A stretch of DNA of 64,000 bases from Candidatus Bathyarchaeota archaeon (GTDB lineage: Archaea; Thermoproteota; Bathyarchaeia; Bathyarchaeales; Bathycorpusculaceae), in assembly GCA_963717465.1 (NCBI GenBank), contig OY970340.1:1792001-1856000 (forward strand), given 5' to 3'. Below the pieces are notes generated by a model, which saw nothing but the letters and a program-made list of their open reading frames with translations, had not been told where the DNA came from and did not search any database. Positions 18,701-34,411 of this stretch are shown piece by piece. The translations under genes were made by a program, and so were the position numbers. Positions within the stretch are counted from its first letter, which is position 1. Every line of letters begins with the position of its first letter.

Positions 18701-21700
18701 TGCTTCTGCCTCACCATCAACGGTCGATGTTGGCCAACCAATCAGTTTGTCCGTCACTGAAAACACGGGCACCGCGCCTTACACGTATGATTGGCAGGTT
18801 AGCTCTGACGGCGGCTACTCTTGGAGTAATGTTACATCGGCTACAGTGCAGAATCCGACCTTTGATACATCCAGTTTATTTGCGGGCACGTACGAGTTTC
18901 AAGTCATAATCACTGATGAAACAGGCGCTTCTGCTATTTTCTACACTGGCTCCGTCACCGTGAATAGCGCGTTGAGTGAGGTTGCTTCTGAATCACCAAC
19001 CACAGCAGAAGCTGGACAAACAATCAGCCTATCAGTCACCCAATCAACAGGCACTGCTCCCTACACTTACGAGTGGCAATACAGCACTAACAGTAGCGTG
19101 TCTTGGGCGGATATTCCATCCGATTCCAGTTATCAAAATCCCTCCTTTGACACCACAAACTATGGAGGCCAACTCTTAGAGTTCCAAGTCATTATCACAG
19201 ATGGCGCAGGCGCTTCTCAAACCTTTACCACAAGTACCGTCCTCATAAACCCTGCAACCAGTGGGTTAAGCGAGACTGCTTCAGTCTCTCAGAGCGTTGT
19301 GGACGCTGGACAAACTGTTAATTTAACGGTTACTCAGACAACAGGTACCGGTCCCTTCACTTACGAATGGCAAGTAAGCACTGACGAAACAAACTGGAAT
19401 AACATTCCATTGTACTCACTGCAGAACTCAAGTTTTGATACGTCTGATTTGGCTGCTGGCACCTACTTCTTCCAAGTTATCGTCACTGATTCCACTGGCG
19501 CAACTGGCACCTTTAGCGCTGGCTCGGTTACAGTAAATTCTGCCCTGAGTGAGGTTGCTTCTGAATCACCAACCACAGCAGAAGCTGGACAAACAATCAG
19601 CCTATCAGTCACCCAATCAACAGGCACTGCTCCCTACACTTACGAGTGGCAATACAGCACTAACAGTAGCGTGTCTTGGGCGGATATTCCATCCGACTTC
19701 AGTTATCAAAATCCCTCCTTTGACACCACAAACTATGGAGGCCAACTCTTAGAGTTCCAAGTCATTATCACAGATGGCGCAGGCGCTTCTCAAACCTTTA
19801 CCACAAGTACCGTCCTCATAAACCCTGCAACCAGTGGGTTAAGCGAGACTGCTTCAGTCTCTCAGAGCGTTGTGGACGCTGGACAAACTGTTAATTTAAC
19901 GGTTACTCAGACAACAGGTACCGGTCCCTTCACTTACGAATGGCAAGTAAGCACTGACGAAACAAACTGGAATAACATTCCATTGTACTCACTGCAGAAC
20001 TCAAGTTTTGATACGTCTGATTTGGCTGCTGGCACCTACTATTTCCAAGTGATTGTTAACGATTCTGCGGGTGCAACAGCCACCTTCAATGCTGGCTCTG
20101 TTACGGTGAATTCTGCTTTGAGTGAGTCTGCTTATGCATCACCCGGCATGGTGGATGTCGGTCAATCCATCAGTTTATCAGTTACTGATTCTACGGGTAC
20201 TGGTCCTTTCACGTATGAGTGGCAGTACAGCACTGACAACGGTGTAATTTGGAATAACATTCCGTCGTATTCGGAGCAGAGCCCGACTTTTGATACGTCA
20301 GGCCTAGGATGGGGTGTCTACAGCTTCCAAGTCATCATTACTGATCAAACAGATGCGTCACTCACGTTGAGCACGGACCAGGTGACAGTGAATCCCGCTG
20401 TTGAAGCAGCTATTACTCCAACCTCAATTACCATGGATGTTGGTCAATCTGAAATTTTCACTGCTTGGTCGATAGGCGGCGCTGACTGCATTGGTTTCCA
20501 ATGGTACGTGAACGGTGTACCCCAAAGCGGTCAGGTCGGATCTACATTTACCTTTACGGCAACTTCAACAGTCGCTCCGTCCATAACCGTAACAACAACC
20601 GATGATTTAGGTCAAACTTCACCTCAATCATCATCTCCAACTATCACAATAAACCCAGGTTTGAGTGAGATTGCTTCTGCATCGCCGAGTGTGGTGGATG
20701 TTGGTCAACCTGTCAGTTTATCAGTTACTGATTCTACGGGTACTGGTCCTTTCACGTATGAGTGGCAGTACAGCACTGACGGCATAAACTGGAATGATAT
20801 CCCATCCTCGTCATCACAGAACCCGAGCTTTGATGCGTCAGGTTTGACTGCTGGCACTTATTATTTCCAGGTGATTGTTAATGATTCTGCGGGTGCGTCT
20901 GCTACTTTCAGCACTGGCCAAGTAACGGTGAATGTTGATCCTTCAATTAATGTGCAACCCTCTGCAGCCACCATTGATAGTGGGCAGTCTATTACTTTGA
21001 CTTCAACTGTGCAGGATGGTACTGGTTCATACTCTTGGCAATGGTTCGACAGCAGCGGCATAATTACTGGTGCATCTGGTACAGGAGCAACTGCTTCACT
21101 GCCTGTTTCAGCCTCTGACACCGGCGTCTTACGTAGTCTTCACTGACACCGGAGTAGCACCAATGGTGAATGTTAATTCAACCAGTGTTGATGTCACAGT
21201 TGATGCTGCACCCACAATCATCACTCAGCCTTCTAGGGCGTATATCGAGAGTGGGCAGTCTATTACTTTGACTTCTACGGTTCAGGGTGGTTCTGGCTCG
21301 TTCTCTTGGGCTTGTTATGATCATACTGGTTCTCTTGTCGGATCTGGCTCGGGGACAACTGCCTCGCAGGTAATCACAACTTCTGACTTTTATGGCTACT
21401 ACTTCGTCTTCACTGACACCGGTGTAAGTGCTGGTGCGACTCCAGCGTCAGCGGCGACTGTTACTTCAAACGGTGCTCCCGTTGTTGTTCTTTCTGCGCC
21501 CTCCGTTTACATTCAGCCTTCTTCTGTAACGATTGATAGTGGGCAGTCTATTACTTTGTCTTCTTCCGTGGAGGGTGGTTCTGGCGATTTCTCTTGGCAA
21601 TGGTATGATCAGACTGGCGCTATAGTGGGCGCTTATGGCTCGGGTACCACGGCTTCCTACACGTTTAGTTCTTTGAGTAGTGATGATGGTGTCTACGTGG

Positions 21701-24700
21701 TGTTCACTGATGTTTACGTTTCTTCTGGTGCTACTCCATCGTCGTTGGCGAGTGTTTCTTCTAGTAGTGTTGATGTTACAGTTGATTCTGCACCCTTAGT
21801 TTCCACTTCGCTTAATAGTGCGACGATTGACAGTGGTCAGTCTATTACTTTGACTTCTACGGTGTCTGGTGGTTCTGGCTCGTTCTCTTGGGCTTGTTAT
21901 GATCATACTGGTTCTCTTGTCGGATCTGGCACGGGTGCTTTTGCTTCGCAGTCGGTCTCAAGTTCTGATGCAGGCTACTACTTCGTGTTCACTGACACGG
22001 GTGTTTCTTCTGATGCGGCTCCAGCGGTAACTGCGTCTTCAAACAGTATAGCCGTTTATGTTAATGCGGCGCCCTACGTGAGTATTCCGCCTTCTTCGGC
22101 GACGATTTACAGTGGGCAATCTGCAAATTTGACTTCAGTTGTATCTGGTGGCAGCGGCGATTTCAACTGGCAATGGTATGACAACAGCGGTGCTATATCG
22201 GGTGCTTATGGTTCGGGTTCAACGGCTTTCTACTTGGTTTCAAGTGGTGACACTGGAGTCTACGTGGTGTTTACTGACACTGGCTTAACTTCCGGTGCGA
22301 CTCCGGATTCAACGGCAACTGCTTCTTCTAATAGTGTTGATGTTTCGATTGGTACTGCGCCTTCGATTAGCATTCAGCCTTCTTCTGCAGTTATTGACAG
22401 TGGGCAATCTATTACTTTGACTTCAACTGTGCAGGATGGTAGCGGCTCATTCTCTTGGCAATGGTATGATCAGACTGGTGCATTATCTGACGCTTACGGT
22501 ACGGGCACAACGGCCACTTACGTGTTTGGCTCTTCGGGCAACGGCACCGGAATCTATGTAGTCTTCACTGACACTGGCGTAACTCCGGCGGTGAATGTGG
22601 CTTCAAACAGTGTTAATGTTACTGTTGATGTTGCGCCTTCAATCATCTCTCAGCCCTCTTCCGCAACGATCGACAGTGGACAGTCGATAACTTTAACTTC
22701 AACGGTGTCTGGTGGAACTGGAACTTTCACTTGGACATGCTATACTCACACGGGCACTCTAGTTGGTTCTGGCTCAGGGCAGTCTGCTTCTCAGGTAGTC
22801 TCAACTGCTGACTCGGGTTATTACTTTGCGTTCACTGACACGGGTGTATCTTCCGGCGCGACCCCCACGGCAACCGCTCAGTCAAGCGGTGCTCAAGTTA
22901 TAGTTGACTCTGCACCCCAAATTAGCTCTCAGCCCTCTTCCGCAACCATTGACAGTGGACAGTCGATAACTTTAACTTCAACCGTGACAGGTGGCACCGG
23001 CTCATTCACTTGGAAATGTTACACCCACACAGGTGCTCAAGTTGGCTCCGGCTCGGGAACGTCTGCCTCGCAGATAGTCTCAACTGCTGACGCGGGTTAT
23101 TACTTTGTGTTCACTGACACAGGCGTATCTTCCGGCGCAACTCCCACGGCAACCGCTCAGTCAAACAGTGCTCAGGCTAGGGAGGATTCTGCTCCGTCAG
23201 TCAGCTCTCAGCCTTCTTCTGCGACTATTGACAGCGGCCAGTCTATTACTTTGACTTCTACGGTTCAGGGTGGTACTGGATCATTCACTTGGCAGTGGTA
23301 TAATCATGCGGGTACTGCTGTTGGTAGTGGTTCTTCTGGTACGACTGCTTCGCTTTCTGTTTCATCTGCTGATTCGGGTTACTATGTTGTGTTCACTGAT
23401 TCTGGAACTGGTTCTGCCACTCCAACCAAGACTGCTACTTCAAGCAGTGTTCAAGTTACCGTTGATTCTGCTCCGTCAGTCAGCTCTCAGCCTTCTTCTG
23501 CGACTATTGACAGCGGCCAGTCTATTACTTTGACTTCTACGGTTCAGGGTGGTACTGGATCATTCACTTGGAAATGTTACACCCACACAGGTGCTCAAGT
23601 TGGCTCCGGCTCGGGAACGTCTGCCTCGCAGATAGTCTCAACTGCTGACGCGGGTTATTACTTTGTGTTCACTGACACAGGCGTATCTTCCGGCGCAACT
23701 CCCACGGCAACCGCTCAGTCAAACAGTGCTCAGGTTGCTGTTGATTCTGCTCCTTCAATTGGTGCACAACCTGTTTCTGCTACCTTGGACAGCGGCCAAT
23801 CAATAACGTTGTCGTCTACGGTTACGAGAGGCACTGGTTCATTCACGTGGCAATGGTACGATCACAATGGCGTTGTAACGGGCGCCTCTGGAACTGGCGT
23901 ATCCGCTTCTTATGTCGTTTCAAGCGGTGACACGGGAATTTACGTGGTCTTCACTGATGCTGGTGTTAGTGCAGGTGCTTCTGGATCAAAGACTGCAACT
24001 TCAAGCACTGTTGATGTTACAATGAATGTCGCTCTAACAGTTTCTGTCAGTCCAGCTGGTCCAGTGACAATGAACATTGGACAAACTGAGACTTTTACAG
24101 CCAATCCATCTGGAGGCTCCGATAGTTACTCAACGTACACTTGGTATGTGAATGGCATCTCACAGAGCGGATATGATACATCGATGTTTAATTATACAGC
24201 CAATTCGTTAGGTTCTCTATCCATAACTGCTACTGTCACCGATAGTTTAGGAGTGACTTCATCCCAATCATCGACTTGCGATGTTACAGTCAACGATGTT
24301 GCTCCAACTATCACTGCCCCGGTCAATGTAGTAGCGTTCGCTAACAGCGCAGCAGGAGCCAGTGATGTCTCGTTAGGTTCTCCAACTGTTGGCAGCATCG
24401 CTTATTCAACTGCAGACTTATCAGTTACCAACAACGCCACCGCCATATTCCCAGTAGGCACAGTGACAGTTCTCTGGACTGTAACGGACCCAAGTGGACT
24501 AACTGCAACAGCCCTTCAAACCGTTATAATAAACCCATACTCGCCAACATCTTCATCTTCGCCGACACCAACACTTACCCCAACACCGACCCCTACTACA
24601 ACCCCAACGCAATACCAAACTTACACTGTGACCGCAACGGCACCCAACGGCACGGTCGTCAACGTCACAATCTATGGAGACATCAACAGCAGCCAAATCT

Positions 24701-25120
24701 CAAACATGACGATCTCAACATGTCAATCTGCAGCAACAACGGCTGTCTCTTTCACAATAACTGGTCAAAGCGGAACACAAAGCTTCCTTAACATGACAAT
24801 TTCAAAGAACGACGTATTCTATGGAACAGTGCCGGCAGTGAGCATCGACGGCAAACAAGCTGTTAACCAAGGTTACGTGCAAGACGCAAACAACTATTAT
24901 GTGTGGTTCTCAACAAGCTCCGGTACAAACCAGGTCTCAATACTATTTGCAAGGGCGACTAGGCAGCACAACTCCAGCATCCGCCAATGAGCCAGCTTTG
25001 GACTCATTTGCCCAATATCTATCCGTAGCAGCAGCATTAATAATCTTGGCAGCTATAATTGTAGGACTATTCGTGAAAAGAAGAAAAGACAGACAAAGCG
25101 GCATCACGATCTTAAACTAA
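15753..25120 (+). CDS. Giant (~3100 aa) cell-surface protein with tandem Ig/PKD-like repeats, HYR-like domain, PT linker and C-terminal TM anchor; frameshifts near 21129 and ~24950
   Basis: Signal peptide and AGGAG SD. Repeats TYEWQYSTDG and QPSSATIDSGQSITLTSTV. ORFs 15753-21146, 21070-24990 and 24899-25120 join; an extra T breaks the repeat consensus DTGVYVVFTD. Confidence 0.88.
18973..20040 (+). repeat. Near-identical tandem duplication with 573-bp period inside the surface-protein gene
   Basis: Sequence from 18973 recurs at 19546 almost unchanged for ~495 bp. Confidence 0.92.
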
Positions 25121-25824: not shown

Positions 25825-28071
25825 ATGTCTGAAATCAAGAATGTGATTTGTGCAGTCTGTGACAAAGGATGCCCGCTTAAGGTCAAAGTAAACAACAATA
25901 AAATGGTTAGCGCCCAGGGACTTATGGATTCCAAAGTTATATGCATGAAACCTCAATTTGCAAATGATTACATCAATCATCCGCAAAGATTATTGTATCC
26001 ACTGAAGAACGTAGGCTCAAGAAGAGGAGAGCAAAAATGGAAACGTATCACTTGGGAACAAGCATTAGATGAAATTGCATTTAAGCTGGAAAAAATTATA
26101 AAAAAATATGGACCGGAATCATTCGCCGTTTCTACATTGCCAGTTAATGCAGGGGTAGATCAGGGAATGGTTCGAAGATTAATGAATCTGCTTGGTAGTC
26201 CGAACTGGATGAGCGGTTTATCGATGTGTATGGGTAATACTGCGCAGGTTCACAGAACTACTTTAGGCTGGTTCCCAATGGGTGATTATACACATGCAAA
26301 ATGCATTGTATATATTGGTCATAATCCACATGAACAAAACTGGGTGATGGAATACTATCAGCTATTGCAGGCTAAGGAACGAGGTGCAAAACTCATTGTT
26401 CTTGATCCACGCAAGTCACAGTGTGCAAATCTTGCTGACCTCTATTTACCCCTCCGTTATGGCACAGATGCCGCGATGCTCTTAGGTTGGCTGAATATAA
26501 TTATTAACGAAGAGCTTTATGACAAAAAGTTTGTTAAAAAATGGACAATTGGCTTTGACGAACTTAAGGAAAGAGTGCAGGACTATCCATTGGAAAAGGT
26601 TGCCAAAATAACCGACTGCAAGGCTGAGGATATCAAAAAAGCAGCCATGATGTATGCGACACAAGGACCTTCAATCATCCCTTGGAGTGTTAATTTTGAC
26701 ATGAATGTAAACAGTACATCCCTTATCCGCTGTCATAGTATTCTGGCTGCCATCTGTGGATATCTAAACAAAAGCGAAATGCTGGGCTATCTAAATCCTG
26801 ATGTTGTGACAATTTCAGAAGTAGAAATGCATGAAGCATTGCCTGACGAAAAGAAAAAGATACAGTTGGGAACCAAGACTTATCCATTATTTACTTATGA
26901 AGGCTTGAAAAAACTGAATGAACCCTCTAAAAGAGTGTATGGACGGGAGTACTGCAATGTTATATCCAGTTTCATGGCGCACCCACCTACGGTATTTAAG
27001 GCAATGCGAACTGGATCGCCATATGCTGTTAAGGCATTTTTTATCTTGGGCGGAAATCCACTGATGGGATATGCCAATCAGCAAGGTGTTTTTGAGGCAA
27101 TGAAAAATCAGGAACTGATTGTGAGCTTTGATCACCTATTAAATCCGTCAGCTCAATTGGCTGATTATGTCTTGCCTGGGGATGCTTGGCTGGAAAGACC
27201 ATCCTTATTTCCGCTATTCGATTTAGCGCCAATAGCCATTCCTTTTCAGCAAGCCCTTGTGTCTCCTGGAGAGTGCAAAGACTTGTATTTCTTCATTAAG
27301 GGTTTAGCGGATCGGTTGGGGTTAAAGGAATATTTTCCATGGAATAATCTTGTTGAGTTTATGGAATACAGAATTCAAAAATCAGGACTGAAATGGGAAG
27401 CATATGAAGAAACGCCGTTGAAGGAGTTAATGACTATATCTCAATTGTTTTCGCCATTTATGATGAAAAAGCCCATTACGAATAAAGCGATTTCAAAGGT
27501 CGGATTCATGCTGTCGTTGCCTTTTACAAAAGGTGTAGGGGTTGCCACTCCTTCGGGAAAAGTTGAGTTGAAAAGTAGTATTCTCGAAGGGCTTGGATAT
27601 GATTCGTTGCCTTATTATAAAGAACCACAACAAACCCCGATTTCAAATCCAAAGCTGGCTAAAGAGTACCCGTTGACACTGTTCATAGGATTGAGAGAAG
27701 GACCATACTATAATACCAATCTGCGTCATGTTGAAGGTTTAAGAAAGCAGTTGCCTAATCCCCTTGCTCTGATTCACCCGTCGGATGCTGCAAAATATGA
27801 TATTCAAGCAGGCGATTGGATTTGGGTTGAAACCACTCATGGCAAGGTTAAAATGATGGCGCAGCTTGATGAAGTTCAACCGGCTGGAACAATTCGCGTC
27901 CCACATGGATGGTGGTTGCCTGAGTTGGAACCTGGAGAGAAAACCGGATTTTCAGGTGCCATGTGGCATAATGATGGGTTGGTCATCAGTGATGATGATT
28001 GGAATCTTGACCCTGAACAGGGATTGCCAAATCTGAGAGGCGGATTACTGGCCAAGGTTTCGAAAATATAA
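25825..28071 (+). CDS. Acetylene-hydratase-like W/Mo-bisPGD [4Fe-4S] enzyme
   Basis: C9xxC12-D13-xxC16...C40MK Fe-S motif; GSPNW...MCMGNTA metal ligand; LRYGTDAA; DDDWNLDPEQGLPNLRGG C-terminus. Confidence 0.92.
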   Translation: MSEIKNVICAVCDKGCPLKVKVNNNKMVSAQGLMDSKVICMKPQFANDYINHPQRLLYPLKNVGSRRGEQKWKRITWEQALDEIAFKLEKIIKKYGPESFAVSTLPVNAGVDQGMVRRLMNLLGSPNWMSGLSMCMGNTAQVHRTTLGWFPMGDYTHAKCIVYIGHNPHEQNWVMEYYQLLQAKERGAKLIVLDPRKSQCANLADLYLPLRYGTDAAMLLGWLNIIINEELYDKKFVKKWTIGFDELKERVQDYPLEKVAKITDCKAEDIKKAAMMYATQGPSIIPWSVNFDMNVNSTSLIRCHSILAAICGYLNKSEMLGYLNPDVVTISEVEMHEALPDEKKKIQLGTKTYPLFTYEGLKKLNEPSKRVYGREYCNVISSFMAHPPTVFKAMRTGSPYAVKAFFILGGNPLMGYANQQGVFEAMKNQELIVSFDHLLNPSAQLADYVLPGDAWLERPSLFPLFDLAPIAIPFQQALVSPGECKDLYFFIKGLADRLGLKEYFPWNNLVEFMEYRIQKSGLKWEAYEETPLKELMTISQLFSPFMMKKPITNKAISKVGFMLSLPFTKGVGVATPSGKVELKSSILEGLGYDSLPYYKEPQQTPISNPKLAKEYPLTLFIGLREGPYYNTNLRHVEGLRKQLPNPLALIHPSDAAKYDIQAGDWIWVETTHGKVKMMAQLDEVQPAGTIRVPHGWWLPELEPGEKTGFSGAMWHNDGLVISDDDWNLDPEQGLPNLRGGLLAKVSKI

Positions 28072-28667: not shown

Positions 28668-29498
28668 TTGAAAAAACTAGCTTCAATTCTCTTCACTAGA
28701 ATTCCATTGGAGGGTAACACTAAAACAAGGCTCACATTAAAAGAAGAAGGTGGGATTCTAACGTCTGAAGAAGCTGCAACATTCTATAAGGCTTCAATGA
28801 TGGATGTAATTGAAGTCTTTATAAAAGTTATAAAATCATTTAATGAAGAAAAACCCAACTTGGAAAACAAGTTATTCATTGCTTATGAACCTAAAGAAAA
28901 AGAAGAAAATCTAAAAAGAATACTTGAAAAATCGGATCTGCAAGGTTTATCAAATGATTCGATAGAGCTTTTTGCAACGAGCGGCAACAATTTCAATGAG
29001 CGTATTGCTATGTCTTTTGAATATGTTTTCAAAAAGGGTTATGAATCGGCAGTTATGGTTGGAGGAGACCACCCGCTTATTCAGCCACGCGTTATTAAGG
29101 AAGCATTTGAGCATCTTGAAAGATTGGAGAGACAATACCATAGAGGAGCAATCGTTGCTGGGCCATGCATAGCAGCAGGTCTTTATTTAATTGCACAAAC
29201 AAGCAACGTGCCCATTGACTTCAGAGATGTCTTCTATAATACTCAGGGTATAACATCCTTGGAAGTTTATACCAAAAAAGCCATTGATACACAAGTTCCT
29301 TTTGCAATCCTCGAATTGGTTACCGACGTTGATGTGCCATCTGATTTAGCTGCTTTAGTAGTGAATCTTAGATCTATGGATTACGCTTCTGAATTTCAAC
29401 CAAGCCTCAATCTGCCACGGCATACACTATGGTTCATAAAAAAACTCAACCTTAGTATAATTACCCCTCCAAACCAAAGAGATATAACGCTTCATTAG
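28668..29498 (+). CDS. DUF2064 / TIGR04282-like CofC/MobA-fold transferase
   Basis: FTRIPLEGNTKTRL, MVGGDHP, GPCIAAGLYLI and DVDVPSDL motifs. Confidence 0.8.
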   Translation: MKKLASILFTRIPLEGNTKTRLTLKEEGGILTSEEAATFYKASMMDVIEVFIKVIKSFNEEKPNLENKLFIAYEPKEKEENLKRILEKSDLQGLSNDSIELFATSGNNFNERIAMSFEYVFKKGYESAVMVGGDHPLIQPRVIKEAFEHLERLERQYHRGAIVAGPCIAAGLYLIAQTSNVPIDFRDVFYNTQGITSLEVYTKKAIDTQVPFAILELVTDVDVPSDLAALVVNLRSMDYASEFQPSLNLPRHTLWFIKKLNLSIITPPNQRDITLH

Positions 29499-30006: not shown

Positions 30007-30089
30007 GATTGCCTGAATAGACCCCTTTGTAGGAGATAAGAACCTATTAAAAATATAAAAGGTGAAAAAAAACGAAAGACACTACTGAA

Positions 30090-32366
30090 ATGACTGAGCA
30101 AAAGAAGTTCTTATGTGCATTCTGTGGAGTTCAGTGTGAAATCCTTGCTACTGTTACAAAAGATGGATTCCTGACTGCTGTCGAGCCTCGGCCCGATCAT
30201 CCAATTAGCCCCGGAGCATATTGTCGAAGGTGGACTTATTATACAGAATACCTATACAAATCAGACCGCCTCAAATATCCTATGAAGAGAGTTGGAAAAC
30301 GAGGCGAAGGCAAGTGGCAGATAATTTCATGGGAACAAGCATTTGACGAAATAGGTGCTAGACTCAGGGAGATAATTGCGAAATACGGCTCAGAAGCAAT
30401 ATACGTTTGGCACGGAACATCCCGTGGAAACCCATATGCAGGAGATACAAAGTTCGTTCGCGCAATCGGAAGCCCAGCTATCGGAGCTCCTGGAGCTGAA
30501 ATCTGATTTGCGCCCAACGTCCGTAGTTTAGGGATAACTTACGGCGTTGGACAATGCCTATCTACAGTGATACCTGGCGTAACGAAATCCATGTATAGCA
30601 CGTTCAATCATACTGAATCAAGTGAATTTATCTGGCCGATGTATCTTCGCGCAATTGAAGCGGGAATGAAGCTTATAACACCAGACCCTAGATTCACTGA
30701 GGTTGTTCGTAATTCTGCCCTCTGGCTTCAGATAAGACCAGGTACGGATGCTGCACTCAACTTGGGCATAGCACATGTGCTCATCGAGGAAAATCTCTAT
30801 GACAAAGAGTTCGTGGAGAAATGGTGTTATGGTTTCGAGCAATTGAAGGAACGCGTCAAAAACTACACACCTGAGAAAGTTGAGGAGATCACTTGGGTTC
30901 CAGCGGACAAAATCAGAGAGGCAGCAAGGACACTGGCAAACAACAAACCACAGTCGGTTCCATTACTAAACTATGGACATACTGAGCCATTCTCAAATAG
31001 CTGGGGAATCAATCGTTCGCGGCACATTCTACCCGCGCTGCTCGGAACCGTTGACGAAGAAGCTGGCGAAACGATGCCAAGCAAACCAAAATGGCGCACT
31101 CTCGAAGATTTCGACGAGCCTGACATCATGCCCATGGGACAAAGAAAGAAATTCCTGAATACTTGGAAAAATCACAAATTCGGAATGGTAGGCTGGGAAG
31201 TTCAAGAATTAATTGGTCAAGCCCAAACCAGAGGATACTGGAAAGGAAACCCATATCTTGGATGCACAGAAGTACATGGATACTTAATGACTCCTTGGAA
31301 TCTAGTAACTCGGTCTGTTCTCGAAGGCAAACCCTACCCTATAAAAGCTTTCATAGGACATCAAGGTTCTGCTCTCAGATGCGGACCCAACCAGAAACAG
31401 GCTCTTGAAGCACTGAAACAAATCGAATTCTACGTTAACATGGACACTTCAGTCATGACTCCCGATGCGATGATGGCAGACTATGTATTACCAGCTGCAA
31501 GTACAGCTGAAAGACCCATGGTCGACCTTATGATTAGTAATGCTTCAGAAATGATCTTTAACGCAAGTGCAGACGCGGTTATTCCGAAGAAAATACCAGG
31601 TCTGTGGGATCACAAGGAAGACTATGAAATGTGGCGGGAATTTACAAAGGCAATCAAGGGTCAAAAATGGATAGATGAGCACTGGCCTCAAAAGAACTAT
31701 TACGAACATTATGAGTGGGTATTCAAACCGGCAGGTATGACGCTTAAAGAAGTCGCTGAGAAGACCCCTATCCTTCCAATATTGGAACCAAGAAGATACG
31801 CGTTGCCAGACTCAGAAACTGGTGAGCCAAGAGGATTCGGAACACCCTCTGGAAAGGTCGAACTATACTCAACAATAGCTGAGAAAGTCGGATGCGACCC
31901 AATGGGTAACCATACAGATCCAGCAGCAAGTCCTTACAGCACGCCAGATATCGCAGCGGAATATCCATTTATTCTGACAACTGGAGCTAGACATGGAGAA
32001 ATGTTCCACGGCGAATTATTCGAGATTAGTATGGCGCGTAAAATAAGACCAGACCCAATTGTACAGATTCATCCAATGGCTGCTAGACAGCTTGGCATAG
32101 CAGAGCACGACTGGGTTTGGATTGAGACACCAACAGGAAAAATCAGGATGAGAGCTAAACACTACGAAGGTCTTGATCCGAAAGTAATTGCATGTGAACA
32201 CGGCTGGTGGTTCCCAGAGGAATCAGGTGAACTTCCTAATCTATTCGGCGTCTCCAGATCAAACGCAAGCGTTCTTGTAGATGATGACCCATTGCATTGT
32301 GACCCAGCAACATCAGTATGGGCAAATAAAGCGATGCTTTGCAAGGTATACAAAGCACCATTTTAG
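30090..32366 (+). CDS. Mo/W-bisPGD oxidoreductase (acetylene hydratase/catechol dehydroxylase-like clade), probable selenoprotein with Sec139, 758 aa
   Basis: ORFs 30090-30506 and 30567-32366 are in the same frame, separated only by TGA 30504-30506 in GSPAIGAPGAEI-U-FAPN, which aligns with the Cys ligand of the neighbouring paralog. Confidence 0.85.
30514..30550 (+). promoter_or_regulatory. Bacterial-type SECIS-like hairpin in the coding sequence just 3' of the UGA
   Basis: CCAACG/CGTTGG, CCGTA/TACGG, GTT/AAC, bulged U, A-U, GGGA loop; 24 nt between UGA and loop. Confidence 0.7.
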
Positions 32367-32457
32367 ACAAAGAAGGCCCAATATCCCCCATTTTCTTTTG
32401 TTTCAAATAAAGAATGATTCCGTAAAAAGAATTAGGTGTAACGGTAGGTGATAAGAC

Positions 32458-32799
32458 ATGTCAGAAAAAGAAAAAAAAGCAGAAGAAGTTGCAAATGAAT
32501 TCAGTGCCAAACTTGCTAAACAAACTGAAAAACTCAAAGGCTGGGGCAAAGCAGTCCAGATCGACTTCACTGACGTAGGTGTTTCGTACTGGTATAAATT
32601 TGGCATGGATGGCAAAGTTGAAAAAAGAGAGAAAGCTGACAAGAGAAAAGAAGCCGAAGGAGTAATCAAGGCAACAACAGACATATTTAGAGATTTGATG
32701 AATAATAAAATTAACCCGATGACTGCAATTATGAAAGGCACTATAAAAGTTGAAGGAAGCGCGAATGCCATAATGAAAGTCGGCAAAACTCTAAGTTAG
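32458..32799 (+). CDS. SCP2 sterol/lipid-binding domain protein
   Basis: DIFRDLMNNKINPMTAIMKGTIKVEGS is typical of SCP2 domains; AGGTGA SD. Confidence 0.85.
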   Translation: MSEKEKKAEEVANEFSAKLAKQTEKLKGWGKAVQIDFTDVGVSYWYKFGMDGKVEKREKADKRKEAEGVIKATTDIFRDLMNNKINPMTAIMKGTIKVEGSANAIMKVGKTLS

Positions 32800-33583: not shown

Positions 33584-34411
33584 ATGATTTGGGAAGCTGT
33601 GCAAGATGAGGATGTCGATAATCTAATTAAAGCTGGACTTACATCGGGTCAAGCTAAGGTATACCTTGCACTAGTTCTATTGCAGAAAGCAACAATTTCA
33701 GAAATATCGAAAAAGGCGAAAGTAGATAGGGCTGACACGTATCGCTTAGTAACCGAGCTTGAAGAAATAGGATTAGTTGAAAGAATAATAGCCAAACCGA
33801 ATTTTTTAGTTGCTGTTCCTATAAAAGATGGGCTATCAACTTTGCTCGATAACAAAAAAAAGGAATACACCGAAATGAGCAATGCTGTGAGCGAATTACA
33901 GCAAAAGTTCAAAGCAATTGTGGATAAAAATAGAGATGGGAAAATAAGCCAATATATTCTGATTCCTCAAGGAAACCAAATTATTCGCAGGTTAAGAGAA
34001 ATAGTTGAGAAATGTCAGAAAAATATATGTTGTACTGTTACATGGAAAGAGTTCTCGAAGAATAACGCGCTTCATTTAGTTCTGGCTCTAGATATTGAGA
34101 GGGCAATGAAGCGAGGGATAAAGTTTCAATTTTTGGTTAATGAAAATAGTAAGTCATCATGGCCAAAGAGTACTAAAAGGTTAGCAAAAAATCCAAACTT
34201 TGAGATCCGAACCTTGTCTGCTGTGCCTTTCATGTTTGCAATGTGCGATAGTAGCGAAATCTATATACCTCAAACTCAAGGGGGACTTCAAGAATATCCT
34301 GCGCTTTGGTCAAATAACCCTATAATCGCAGGGCTTGCTAAAAGCTACTTTGATAAACTTTGGAATGAGGGTACCCCTGCTGATTTACGTTCTAAAACTG
34401 GCTCCAAATGA
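33584..34411 (+). CDS. TrmB-family transcriptional regulator
   Basis: GLTSGQAKVYLAL...YRLVTELEEIGLV wHTH; C-terminal YFDKLW effector domain. Confidence 0.9.
   Translation: MIWEAVQDEDVDNLIKAGLTSGQAKVYLALVLLQKATISEISKKAKVDRADTYRLVTELEEIGLVERIIAKPNFLVAVPIKDGLSTLLDNKKKEYTEMSNAVSELQQKFKAIVDKNRDGKISQYILIPQGNQIIRRLREIVEKCQKNICCTVTWKEFSKNNALHLVLALDIERAMKRGIKFQFLVNENSKSSWPKSTKRLAKNPNFEIRTLSAVPFMFAMCDSSEIYIPQTQGGLQEYPALWSNNPIIAGLAKSYFDKLWNEGTPADLRSKTGSK

Follow-up and report, generated by a model that had tools for sequence, protein, structure and literature searches.

A hairpin placed directly behind an in-frame UGA in an archaeal gene points to a selenocysteine (Sec) recoding signal that lies inside the coding sequence. 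The gene is found in a 64,000-nt stretch of the genome of a Candidatus Bathyarchaeota archaeon (contig OY970340.1; the whole stretch is called the window below), which is part of a 3.05-Mb single-contig genome of 40% GC. It encodes a molybdenum/tungsten (Mo/W) enzyme of the bis-molybdopterin guanine dinucleotide (bis-MGD) type. Hairpins of this kind accompany Sec-UGAs across unrelated genes and in several genomes, and they are missing from close cysteine (Cys) forms. We consider it likely that the hairpin serves, close to the UGA and within the gene, as a signal for Sec recoding by the archaeal PSTK-aSelB machinery; its best explanation is that of a functional counterpart, in position and in shape, of the bacterial selenocysteine insertion sequence (SECIS) element. 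An in-gene, UGA-adjacent arrangement appears to have been described so far only for bacteria. Reviews, in the parts that deal with location, place archaeal SECIS elements in the untranslated regions (UTRs) (PMC9499178, PMC8211752, PMC13188914, PMC11227280), one of them with the words "instead of the coding region" (PMC11227280), and in the relevant part of a 2026 review the only archaeal groups credited with Sec use are Methanococcales, Methanopyrales and Asgard archaea (PMC13188914). A literature search, mostly among the main texts of openly accessible papers, found no published SECIS inside an archaeal coding sequence. Three features carry the argument.

30090..32366, + strand: gene for a Sec-containing Mo/W bis-MGD enzyme of the acetylene-hydratase branch; 758 codons, a single UGA among them in frame
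30504..30506, + strand: UGA predicted to be read as Sec, residue 139, in the column of a metal-ligand Cys
30514..30550, + strand: UGA-proximal hairpin, candidate in-gene Sec recoding signal, 15 bp with a GGGA loop

The enzyme gene and its in-frame UGA

Gene callers split the region 30090-32366 into two open reading frames (ORFs) of 138 and 599 aa, which share one frame and are separated by the TGA at 30504-30506 and 60 nt. The 758-residue read-through product carries the Pfam domains Molybdop_Fe4S4, Molybdopterin and Molydop_binding. Its closest solved protein is the acetylene hydratase of Pelobacter acetylenicus (PDB code 2e7z; E 3e-105), with which it aligns from residue 5 to residue 755, unbroken across the UGA. 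The two enzymes are alike in this full-length alignment, in the N-terminal 4Fe-4S motif and in the ligand position. They differ in that the identity is moderate, that the window enzyme would have Sec for Cys, and that its gene belongs to an 11-copy clade which, among the searched genomes, is present only in this one: 14 genomes of the same genus gave no match to this Sec-type Mo/W clade at E <= 1e-40.

The UGA aligns with the Cys of the motif MYMCIGNT in 2e7z. In genomes of the same class this ligand column holds Cys at 24 of 27 homologue sites (the remainder being two Ala and one Ser); in public genomes it does so at 81 of 84 sites (two Gly and one Trp, some of them in second paralogues), and in metagenome contigs at 77 of 79. 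In the Sec clade itself the column is TGA in all 11 paralogues. Since the UGA falls on a ligand column where homologues mostly carry Cys, we assign it as a Sec codon at the metal-ligand position. The preliminary description of this DNA had read the UGA in the same way, and that assignment is supported both by the column and by the presence of Sec machinery in the genome, the two features by which a selenoprotein gene is recognized.

The hairpin in paralogues, other genes and other genomes

The hairpin starts 7 nt past the UGA, and 24 nt separate the UGA from the loop. In the lower stem (CCAACG/CGUUGG) positions 30514-30519 pair with 30545-30550. Above a bulged U at 30520 follows the middle stem (CCGUAG/UUACGG), in which 30521-30526 pair with 30539-30544, the last pair being G-U. 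A U/C mismatch (30527/30538) leads to the upper stem UUA/UAA (30528-30530 with 30535-30537), which is closed by the GGGA loop at 30531-30534. The claim of a stem of about 15 bp with a bulged U and a G-initiated tetraloop 24 nt from the UGA is confirmed at 30514-30550. As drawn earlier, the stem, bulge and loop stand, while the region of the U/C mismatch had been drawn slightly differently. The bacterial style that had been claimed for its position and shape holds as well. The hairpin lies in the continuous frame immediately 3' of the Sec UGA. Its 4-nt GGGA loop, 9 bp above the bulged U, 24-nt distance to the UGA and energy of -16.2 kcal/mol fall within the four shape criteria for bacterial SECIS elements (bSECIS) given in the consulted part of PMC13188914: a loop of 3-9 nt with a G at either of its first two positions, an upper stem of 4-16 bp, a UGA-to-loop distance of 16-37 nt and a minimum free energy of <= -7.5 kcal/mol.

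Folded alone, the 37 nt reach this -16.2 kcal/mol, compared with a mean of -6.83 (sd 2.06) for dinucleotide shuffles (z -4.55; 0 of 200 as stable). An 81-nt context gives a weaker signal (-21.6 kcal/mol, z -1.93, 5 of 200 shuffles as stable). When the same peptide was recoded synonymously with the codon usage of the genome, none of 300 recodings matched the stability of the anchored hairpin (mean -5.0, best -13.6), which argues that the structure is not a by-product of the peptide. The stem contains several minor codons, with GCG, CCC, GTC, CGT and GGG accounting for fractions of only 0.13, 0.15, 0.17, 0.13 and 0.09 of their synonymous sets.

The genome has 11 TGA-bearing copies of the enzyme, whose identity to the window copy is 41-50% across the pieces that align and 44-45% where the copies are full-length. 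For comparison between sites we used an anchored-hairpin measure, in which the stem starts 4-9 nt after the codon and an energy of <= -14 kcal/mol qualifies. By this measure the hairpin is present at all 11 TGA sites of the paralogues, but at only 11 of 990 in-frame positions drawn at random from these genes. A Cys-type relative of the enzyme lies close by in the window, and its anchored-hairpin energy is 0.

25825..28071, + strand: neighbouring Cys-type Mo/W paralogue, 30% identity, with a TGT ligand codon that no hairpin follows

The stem begins at +6 in ten paralogues (CCCACG...CGUGGG) and at +7 in the window copy, which has Asn AAC for Thr ACG and a 5' arm shifted by one base. The window copy also uses Val GTT where the other ten use GTG; with GTG its hairpin would lose 1.7-3.4 kcal/mol. 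In the gap-free alignment of the 11 rows, 89% of cells pair, compared with 23-47% when the partners are slid. Five of the 14 pairs vary on both sides, and the covariation score was reached by 0 of 500 shuffles. In two paralogues a U-A pair has become C-G via two synonymous Leu changes; these two are close kin, so the change counts as one event. The covariation that the preliminary description had proposed to look for among TGA-bearing homologues is thus present, with the hairpin kept in 11 of 11 paralogues. Together with the recodings, these comparisons show, at the level of sequence, that selection acts on the hairpin as an RNA structure.

A FastTree tree of 110 rows, which is rough, has flagged long branches and lacks an outgroup, gathers the eight intact Sec copies in one clade (support 100) with the window copy as its earliest branch; the sister group of this clade is bacterial but weakly supported (support 89). 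On this reading, neither the UGA nor the hairpin would have been lost without the other since the family underwent its deepest split. Of the 11 Sec-type paralogues, three (G000:C1:130853-133097, 616675-618925 and 2797295-2799536) align in two pieces or meet a premature stop, which points to a frameshift or a truncation; they retain the TGA and the hairpin nonetheless.

A search of the entire genome for stops lying within a dominant open frame extends the association beyond this family. Such a hairpin follows 14 of 71 frame-interrupting TGA codons, compared with 0 of 141 TAA and 1 of 54 TAG. The open-frame dominance filter still admits doubtful rows, such as 1284627 and 556764, and the first of these, with a poor coding score, is among the 14. 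Beyond the paralogues, the 14 include three hairpins that start at +6, namely those of HdrA (-24.3 kcal/mol), of an MvhD-like domain encoded in that gene too (-20.8) and of an MtaA-like gene (-16.6). Two other screens were dropped, an energy-only screen of the genome as too noisy and a codon-usage coding score as too weak, the latter having lost most of the true paralogues.

HdrA provides the closest comparison of UGA with Cys. In the HdrA-MvhD gene, which has two UGAs, each UGA has a separate hairpin. Among 30 close homologues of HdrA from the class, all four TGA forms, which come from four genomes, have a +6 hairpin of -19 to -25 kcal/mol, whereas none of the 26 Cys forms, which are 71-79% identical, goes beyond -8.7 kcal/mol. 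The Cys and TGA forms encode nearly the same peptide (IEGPKMVDV.RHPNIEI against IEGPRMVEV.RHPKVQV), and the residues that differ are those that build the stem. In a fifth TGA genome (G187) the HdrA and MvhD hairpins are both present. More distant Sec-using relatives have +6/+7 hairpins after in-frame TGAs by the Sec gene cluster as well: three of -18 to -20 kcal/mol in G103 and one of -14.4 in G110. As a separate observation, the Sec-HdrA of the present genome is 83-88% identical to the copies of another genus and 73% identical to its own Cys-HdrA at 1503673-1504848.

Selenocysteine machinery and gene surroundings

The genome encodes SepSecS (488.9 bits), two tRNA-Sec genes with the anticodon TCA and two PSTK-aSelB genes, each in one frame (732 and 730 aa), with the domains KTI12 (PSTK-like), GTP_EFTU, D2 and aSelB_III. 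The fused frame, SepSecS and tRNA-Sec together make up a PSTK-aSelB fusion Sec system of the Bathyarchaeota type. This fusion is on record in Bathyarchaeota and in a single Archaeoglobus (Mukai et al., Front Genet 2022, PMC8762117; PMC9499178), and in the former paper it is discussed as a guard against cross-talk between Sec and Cys; the word SECIS is absent from the main text of PMC8762117.

SepSecS is distributed patchily: of the 301 genomes sampled from the class 9 have it, and of the 15 that belong to the window's own genus, 2. The fusion is shared by the present genome and all eight other SepSecS-positive genomes, although a TAA divides the frame in G232; in these eight, PSTK-aSelB adjoins SepSecS. 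The SelB part of copy 1 aligns with the aSelB of M. maripaludis (PDB code 4ac9) over residues 20-478 of 482, with no C-terminal extension, and the bacterial selB model is matched only over positions 2-338 of 581. Pfam detected aSelB_III and no SelB winged-helix family in either SelB gene. The best match to SelA scores 20.5 bits, far below the cut-off of 267.9, in a genome estimated to be 88% complete.

The second PSTK-aSelB (G000:C1:2827783-2829725) lies outside the window and is 54% identical to the first. Its GTPase motifs are altered (GHCKHGKT for GHVDHGKT, EMPGN for DLPGH and SKID for NKID), and it adjoins the second, nearly identical tRNA-Sec, which has compensatory changes in the acceptor stem. 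No such second copy was found in the eight other SepSecS-positive genomes at E <= 1e-30.

Within the window, the Sec enzyme gene stands in a small cluster with the Cys-type paralogue at 25825-28071 and a DUF2064 protein at 28668-29498. Directly downstream of it is an SCP2 sterol-carrier-like protein (32458-32799), which may hint at a hydrophobic substrate, and the cluster also has a TrmB-type regulator (33584-34411). Farther upstream on the + strand, a 1306-aa ORF at 21070-24990 has many immunoglobulin-like repeats (Ig_3, E 2e-45) and a weak CVNH match, and is probably a surface protein. The region ahead of the Sec gene contains one more feature, whose resemblance to the consensus, and nothing further, is consistent with an archaeal promoter.

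30047..30062, + strand: TATA-like A/T-rich stretch ttaaaaatataaaagg, about 30-40 nt upstream of the ATG, assigned by consensus resemblance only

Proposed mode of action, alternatives and relation to known signals

As a cis-acting signal 6-7 nt past the UGA, the hairpin would lead the ribosome to insert Sec instead of terminating. With the UGA in the A site, the base of the hairpin would sit at the mRNA entrance of the ribosome. From there it could act in one of two ways. It could recruit the complex of PSTK-aSelB, GTP and Sec-tRNA, or an adaptor; or it could hold the ribosome and hinder the release factor aRF1 until aSelB delivers the Sec-tRNA. We put forward more tentatively, as a proposal with somewhat less than even chances, that Sec-using Bathyarchaeia represent a third kind of Sec decoding, in which the hairpin is read by the PSTK-aSelB fusion or a partner of it and no UTR SECIS takes part.

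Several observations weigh against reading the hairpin as a recoding signal. The 11 paralogues are not independent observations, and neither are the related genomes. Among 300 genomes of the class and the public genome and metagenome contigs, no close UGA or Cys orthologue of the window enzyme was found; the best matches are <=42% identical, none has TGA at the site, and the one class hit that does contain a TGA (G181:C50) has Cys at the ligand site. Because of this, the contrast between UGA and Cys rests on HdrA. The preliminary description had proposed to test whether the hairpin is lost in Cys homologues. For HdrA it is; in the Mo/W family some Cys forms fold as well, and 20% of 158 Cys sites reach -14 kcal/mol against a background of 9.4% of 1196 random in-frame positions, mostly in GC-richer genes. 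Some Cys homologues (L205, L221, L223, L128 and L209) fold at -20 to -23 kcal/mol. The hairpins of the L205 group start 5-7 nt after the ligand Cys codon, in the peptide CHAPREITG.HTCGFYPV, and come from Syntrophales-like bacterial and metagenome sequences; they may be an effect of GC-rich codons or relics of a former bacterial SECIS.

Exceptions exist on the UGA side too. The in-frame UGA of SelD (VHG-U-SCK; G000:C1:951702) has a weak hairpin, about -9.6 kcal/mol over 70 nt and not at +6, and the SelD hairpin is weak also in G103 (-11.9) and G037 (-5.6 kcal/mol). The first UGA of the MtaA-like gene has a hairpin of just -7.6 kcal/mol. Because of these weak cases, either the hairpin rule is not universal or another signal exists. 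By eye, no convincing loop or bulge motif is shared by the hairpins of different families, which fits a purely physical role as well as specific recognition. On the side of the factor, copy 1 of aSelB is without a known RNA-binding extension, and archaeal SelB did not bind archaeal SECIS in vitro, according to the passages on this subject in two reviews (PMC9499178, PMC8211752).

The most serious alternative is a recoding stimulator without a Sec-specific factor. The hairpin would then be a physical barrier at the mRNA entrance, like the selenocysteine codon redefinition element (SRE) of SEPN1 or viral read-through structures; the ribosome would be slowed or aRF1 disfavoured, and Sec specificity would come from aSelB and Sec-tRNA competing at the paused UGA. 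This alternative overlaps our preferred explanation and differs only in the mode of action of the hairpin. Hairpins of different families are indeed alike in position (+6/+7) and stability with no obvious sequence motif, aSelB has no extra RNA-binding domain, and the SEPN1 SRE is reported, in the part of PMC2248747 that we draw on, to promote read-through at UGA as well as UAG. A barrier alone would, however, favour near-cognate read-through too, it gives no reason for the co-occurrence of the PSTK-aSelB fusion with the hairpin, and SelD is presumably recoded despite its weak hairpin. We regard it as rather unlikely, though well ahead of the alternatives that follow.

A second alternative places the true SECIS elsewhere, in a UTR or in a shared distant element, and leaves the hairpin as an accessory enhancer or as a device for mRNA stability or for pacing translation during cofactor insertion. 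The flanks of the gene bear directly on it.

32367..32457, + strand: 3' intergenic region of 91 nt, with an oligo-T tract at 32391-32403, 25 nt after the stop, and no SECIS candidate

This region folds at -7.7 kcal/mol, whereas its shuffles average -12.7 and 199 of the 200 equal or exceed it in stability; the 5' region is unremarkable (z -1.1). T-tracts end archaeal transcripts, and in all nine intact copies an oligo-T tract is present some 20-40 nt from the stop, with no GAA_A-type hairpin. A simple, strict custom pattern for the GAA_A type gave 0 matches in the flanks, 5' or 3', of the 11 paralogues, and 20 in the genome as a whole, and the in-gene hairpin itself has no GAA_A bulge. The marks of the euryarchaeal SECIS (eaSECIS), namely a UTR location and two stems with a GAA_A bulge and three G/C pairs above it, are thus not those of the present element. 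The Rfam SECIS families have no match in 14 selenoprotein loci (48 kb) or around the gene. For an Asgard or eukaryotic kink-turn SECIS, whose marks are an AUGA/GA non-Watson-Crick quartet and an AAR motif in a hairpin of the 3' UTR, the 3' region offers no stable structure and no Rfam SECIS match, although no dedicated kink-turn search was made. The earlier statement that the 3' UTR holds no convincing GAA/A SECIS is in agreement with these results.

In favour of a distant element, known archaeal SECIS lie in UTRs, one of them in a 5' UTR (PMC9499178, in the part consulted), SelD is without a strong local hairpin, and a divergent element could escape both a simple GAA_A pattern and Rfam. The short 3' region with its T-tract and poor folding speaks against it, as does the fact that the hairpin tracks the UGA and not the gene, each UGA of HdrA-MvhD having its own. 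We judge this explanation improbable.

Still less probable is a hairpin that arises by chance or as a by-product of a conserved peptide (GP.../..YGVG). The stems do fall on conserved residues, and a fifth of the Cys homologue sites also fold; against this stand the failure of the synonymous recodings, the compensatory synonymous changes and the excess of UGA sites over background. The least credible reading, to which we give almost no weight, is the one the preliminary description had offered as its two options, a bacterial-type system (winged-helix SelB with SelA) or the recent acquisition of gene and bSECIS from a bacterium: the bSECIS-like shape (PMC13188914, as far as its listed criteria go), the frequency of the enzyme family in bacteria and the weakly supported bacterial sister group would fit it, but the first option is contradicted by aSelB_III without winged helix, the end-to-end alignment of SelB copy 1 with archaeal SelB and the low SelA score in a genome estimated to be 88% complete, and the second by the lack of UGA at all 163 homologue sites outside the class (TGA in 0 of 84 in bacterial and other genomes and 0 of 79 in metagenomes), the single deep clade of the eight intact copies, a third-position GC content of 0.40 versus 0.39 for the long ORFs of the genome, and the same hairpin rule in the archaeal HdrA/MvhD genes. 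The Sec clade is better described, from its distribution, as a lineage-specific expansion.

Returning to the hairpin as an in-gene recoding signal, a local element that works with archaeal aSelB would reopen the question of SECIS evolution across the three domains. It would supply a compact RNA-factor pair for an archaeal machinery that has no known SECIS reader. It would also account for the annotation of Sec genes as split ORFs in these abundant sediment archaea and for their being overlooked by UTR-based tools, and would bring to light a family of Mo/W enzymes that depends on Sec and has 11 copies in a single genome. If a third kind of decoding does exist, UGA-proximal signals would not be a bacterial speciality; they may even be older, with the UTR elements of methanogens, Asgard archaea and eukaryotes derived from them. 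The present gene would in that case be the most deeply branching member of a new, Sec-dependent group among the acetylene-hydratase-like W/Mo enzymes.

With the bSECIS, of which the element of E. coli fdhF is the prototype, the hairpin has in common the location after the UGA in the coding sequence and the small, G-initial loop. The winged-helix SelB that reads the bSECIS and the SelA pathway are absent from this genome (at its estimated 88% completeness), and an archaeal PSTK-aSelB fusion with SepSecS is found instead; moreover, the stem start is here fixed at +6/+7. With the euryarchaeal (GAA_A) elements and the Asgard elements that resemble eukaryotic SECIS (eSECIS-like), the hairpin would share its task and the aSelB/PSTK/SepSecS pathway. 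Those elements are described, in the sections concerned, as lying in the 3' UTR (rarely the 5' UTR), 70-1500 nt from the UGA, and as having either a GAA_A bulge or a core of the kink-turn type; two UGAs can share one element (PMC9499178, PMC13188914). Here, in contrast, each UGA has its own adjacent hairpin, with no GAA_A pattern and with short UTRs.

The hairpin also resembles the eukaryotic SEPN1 SRE, a stem-loop downstream of the UGA (PMC2248747, in the part used here). Both are in-gene stem-loops just past a Sec UGA, and both go with machinery of the EFSec type. The spacing of the SRE is reportedly 6 nt. The SRE acts in concert with a 3'-UTR SECIS and occurs in some genes only, whereas the present hairpin recurs as a rule from one gene family to the next, with no visible UTR SECIS.

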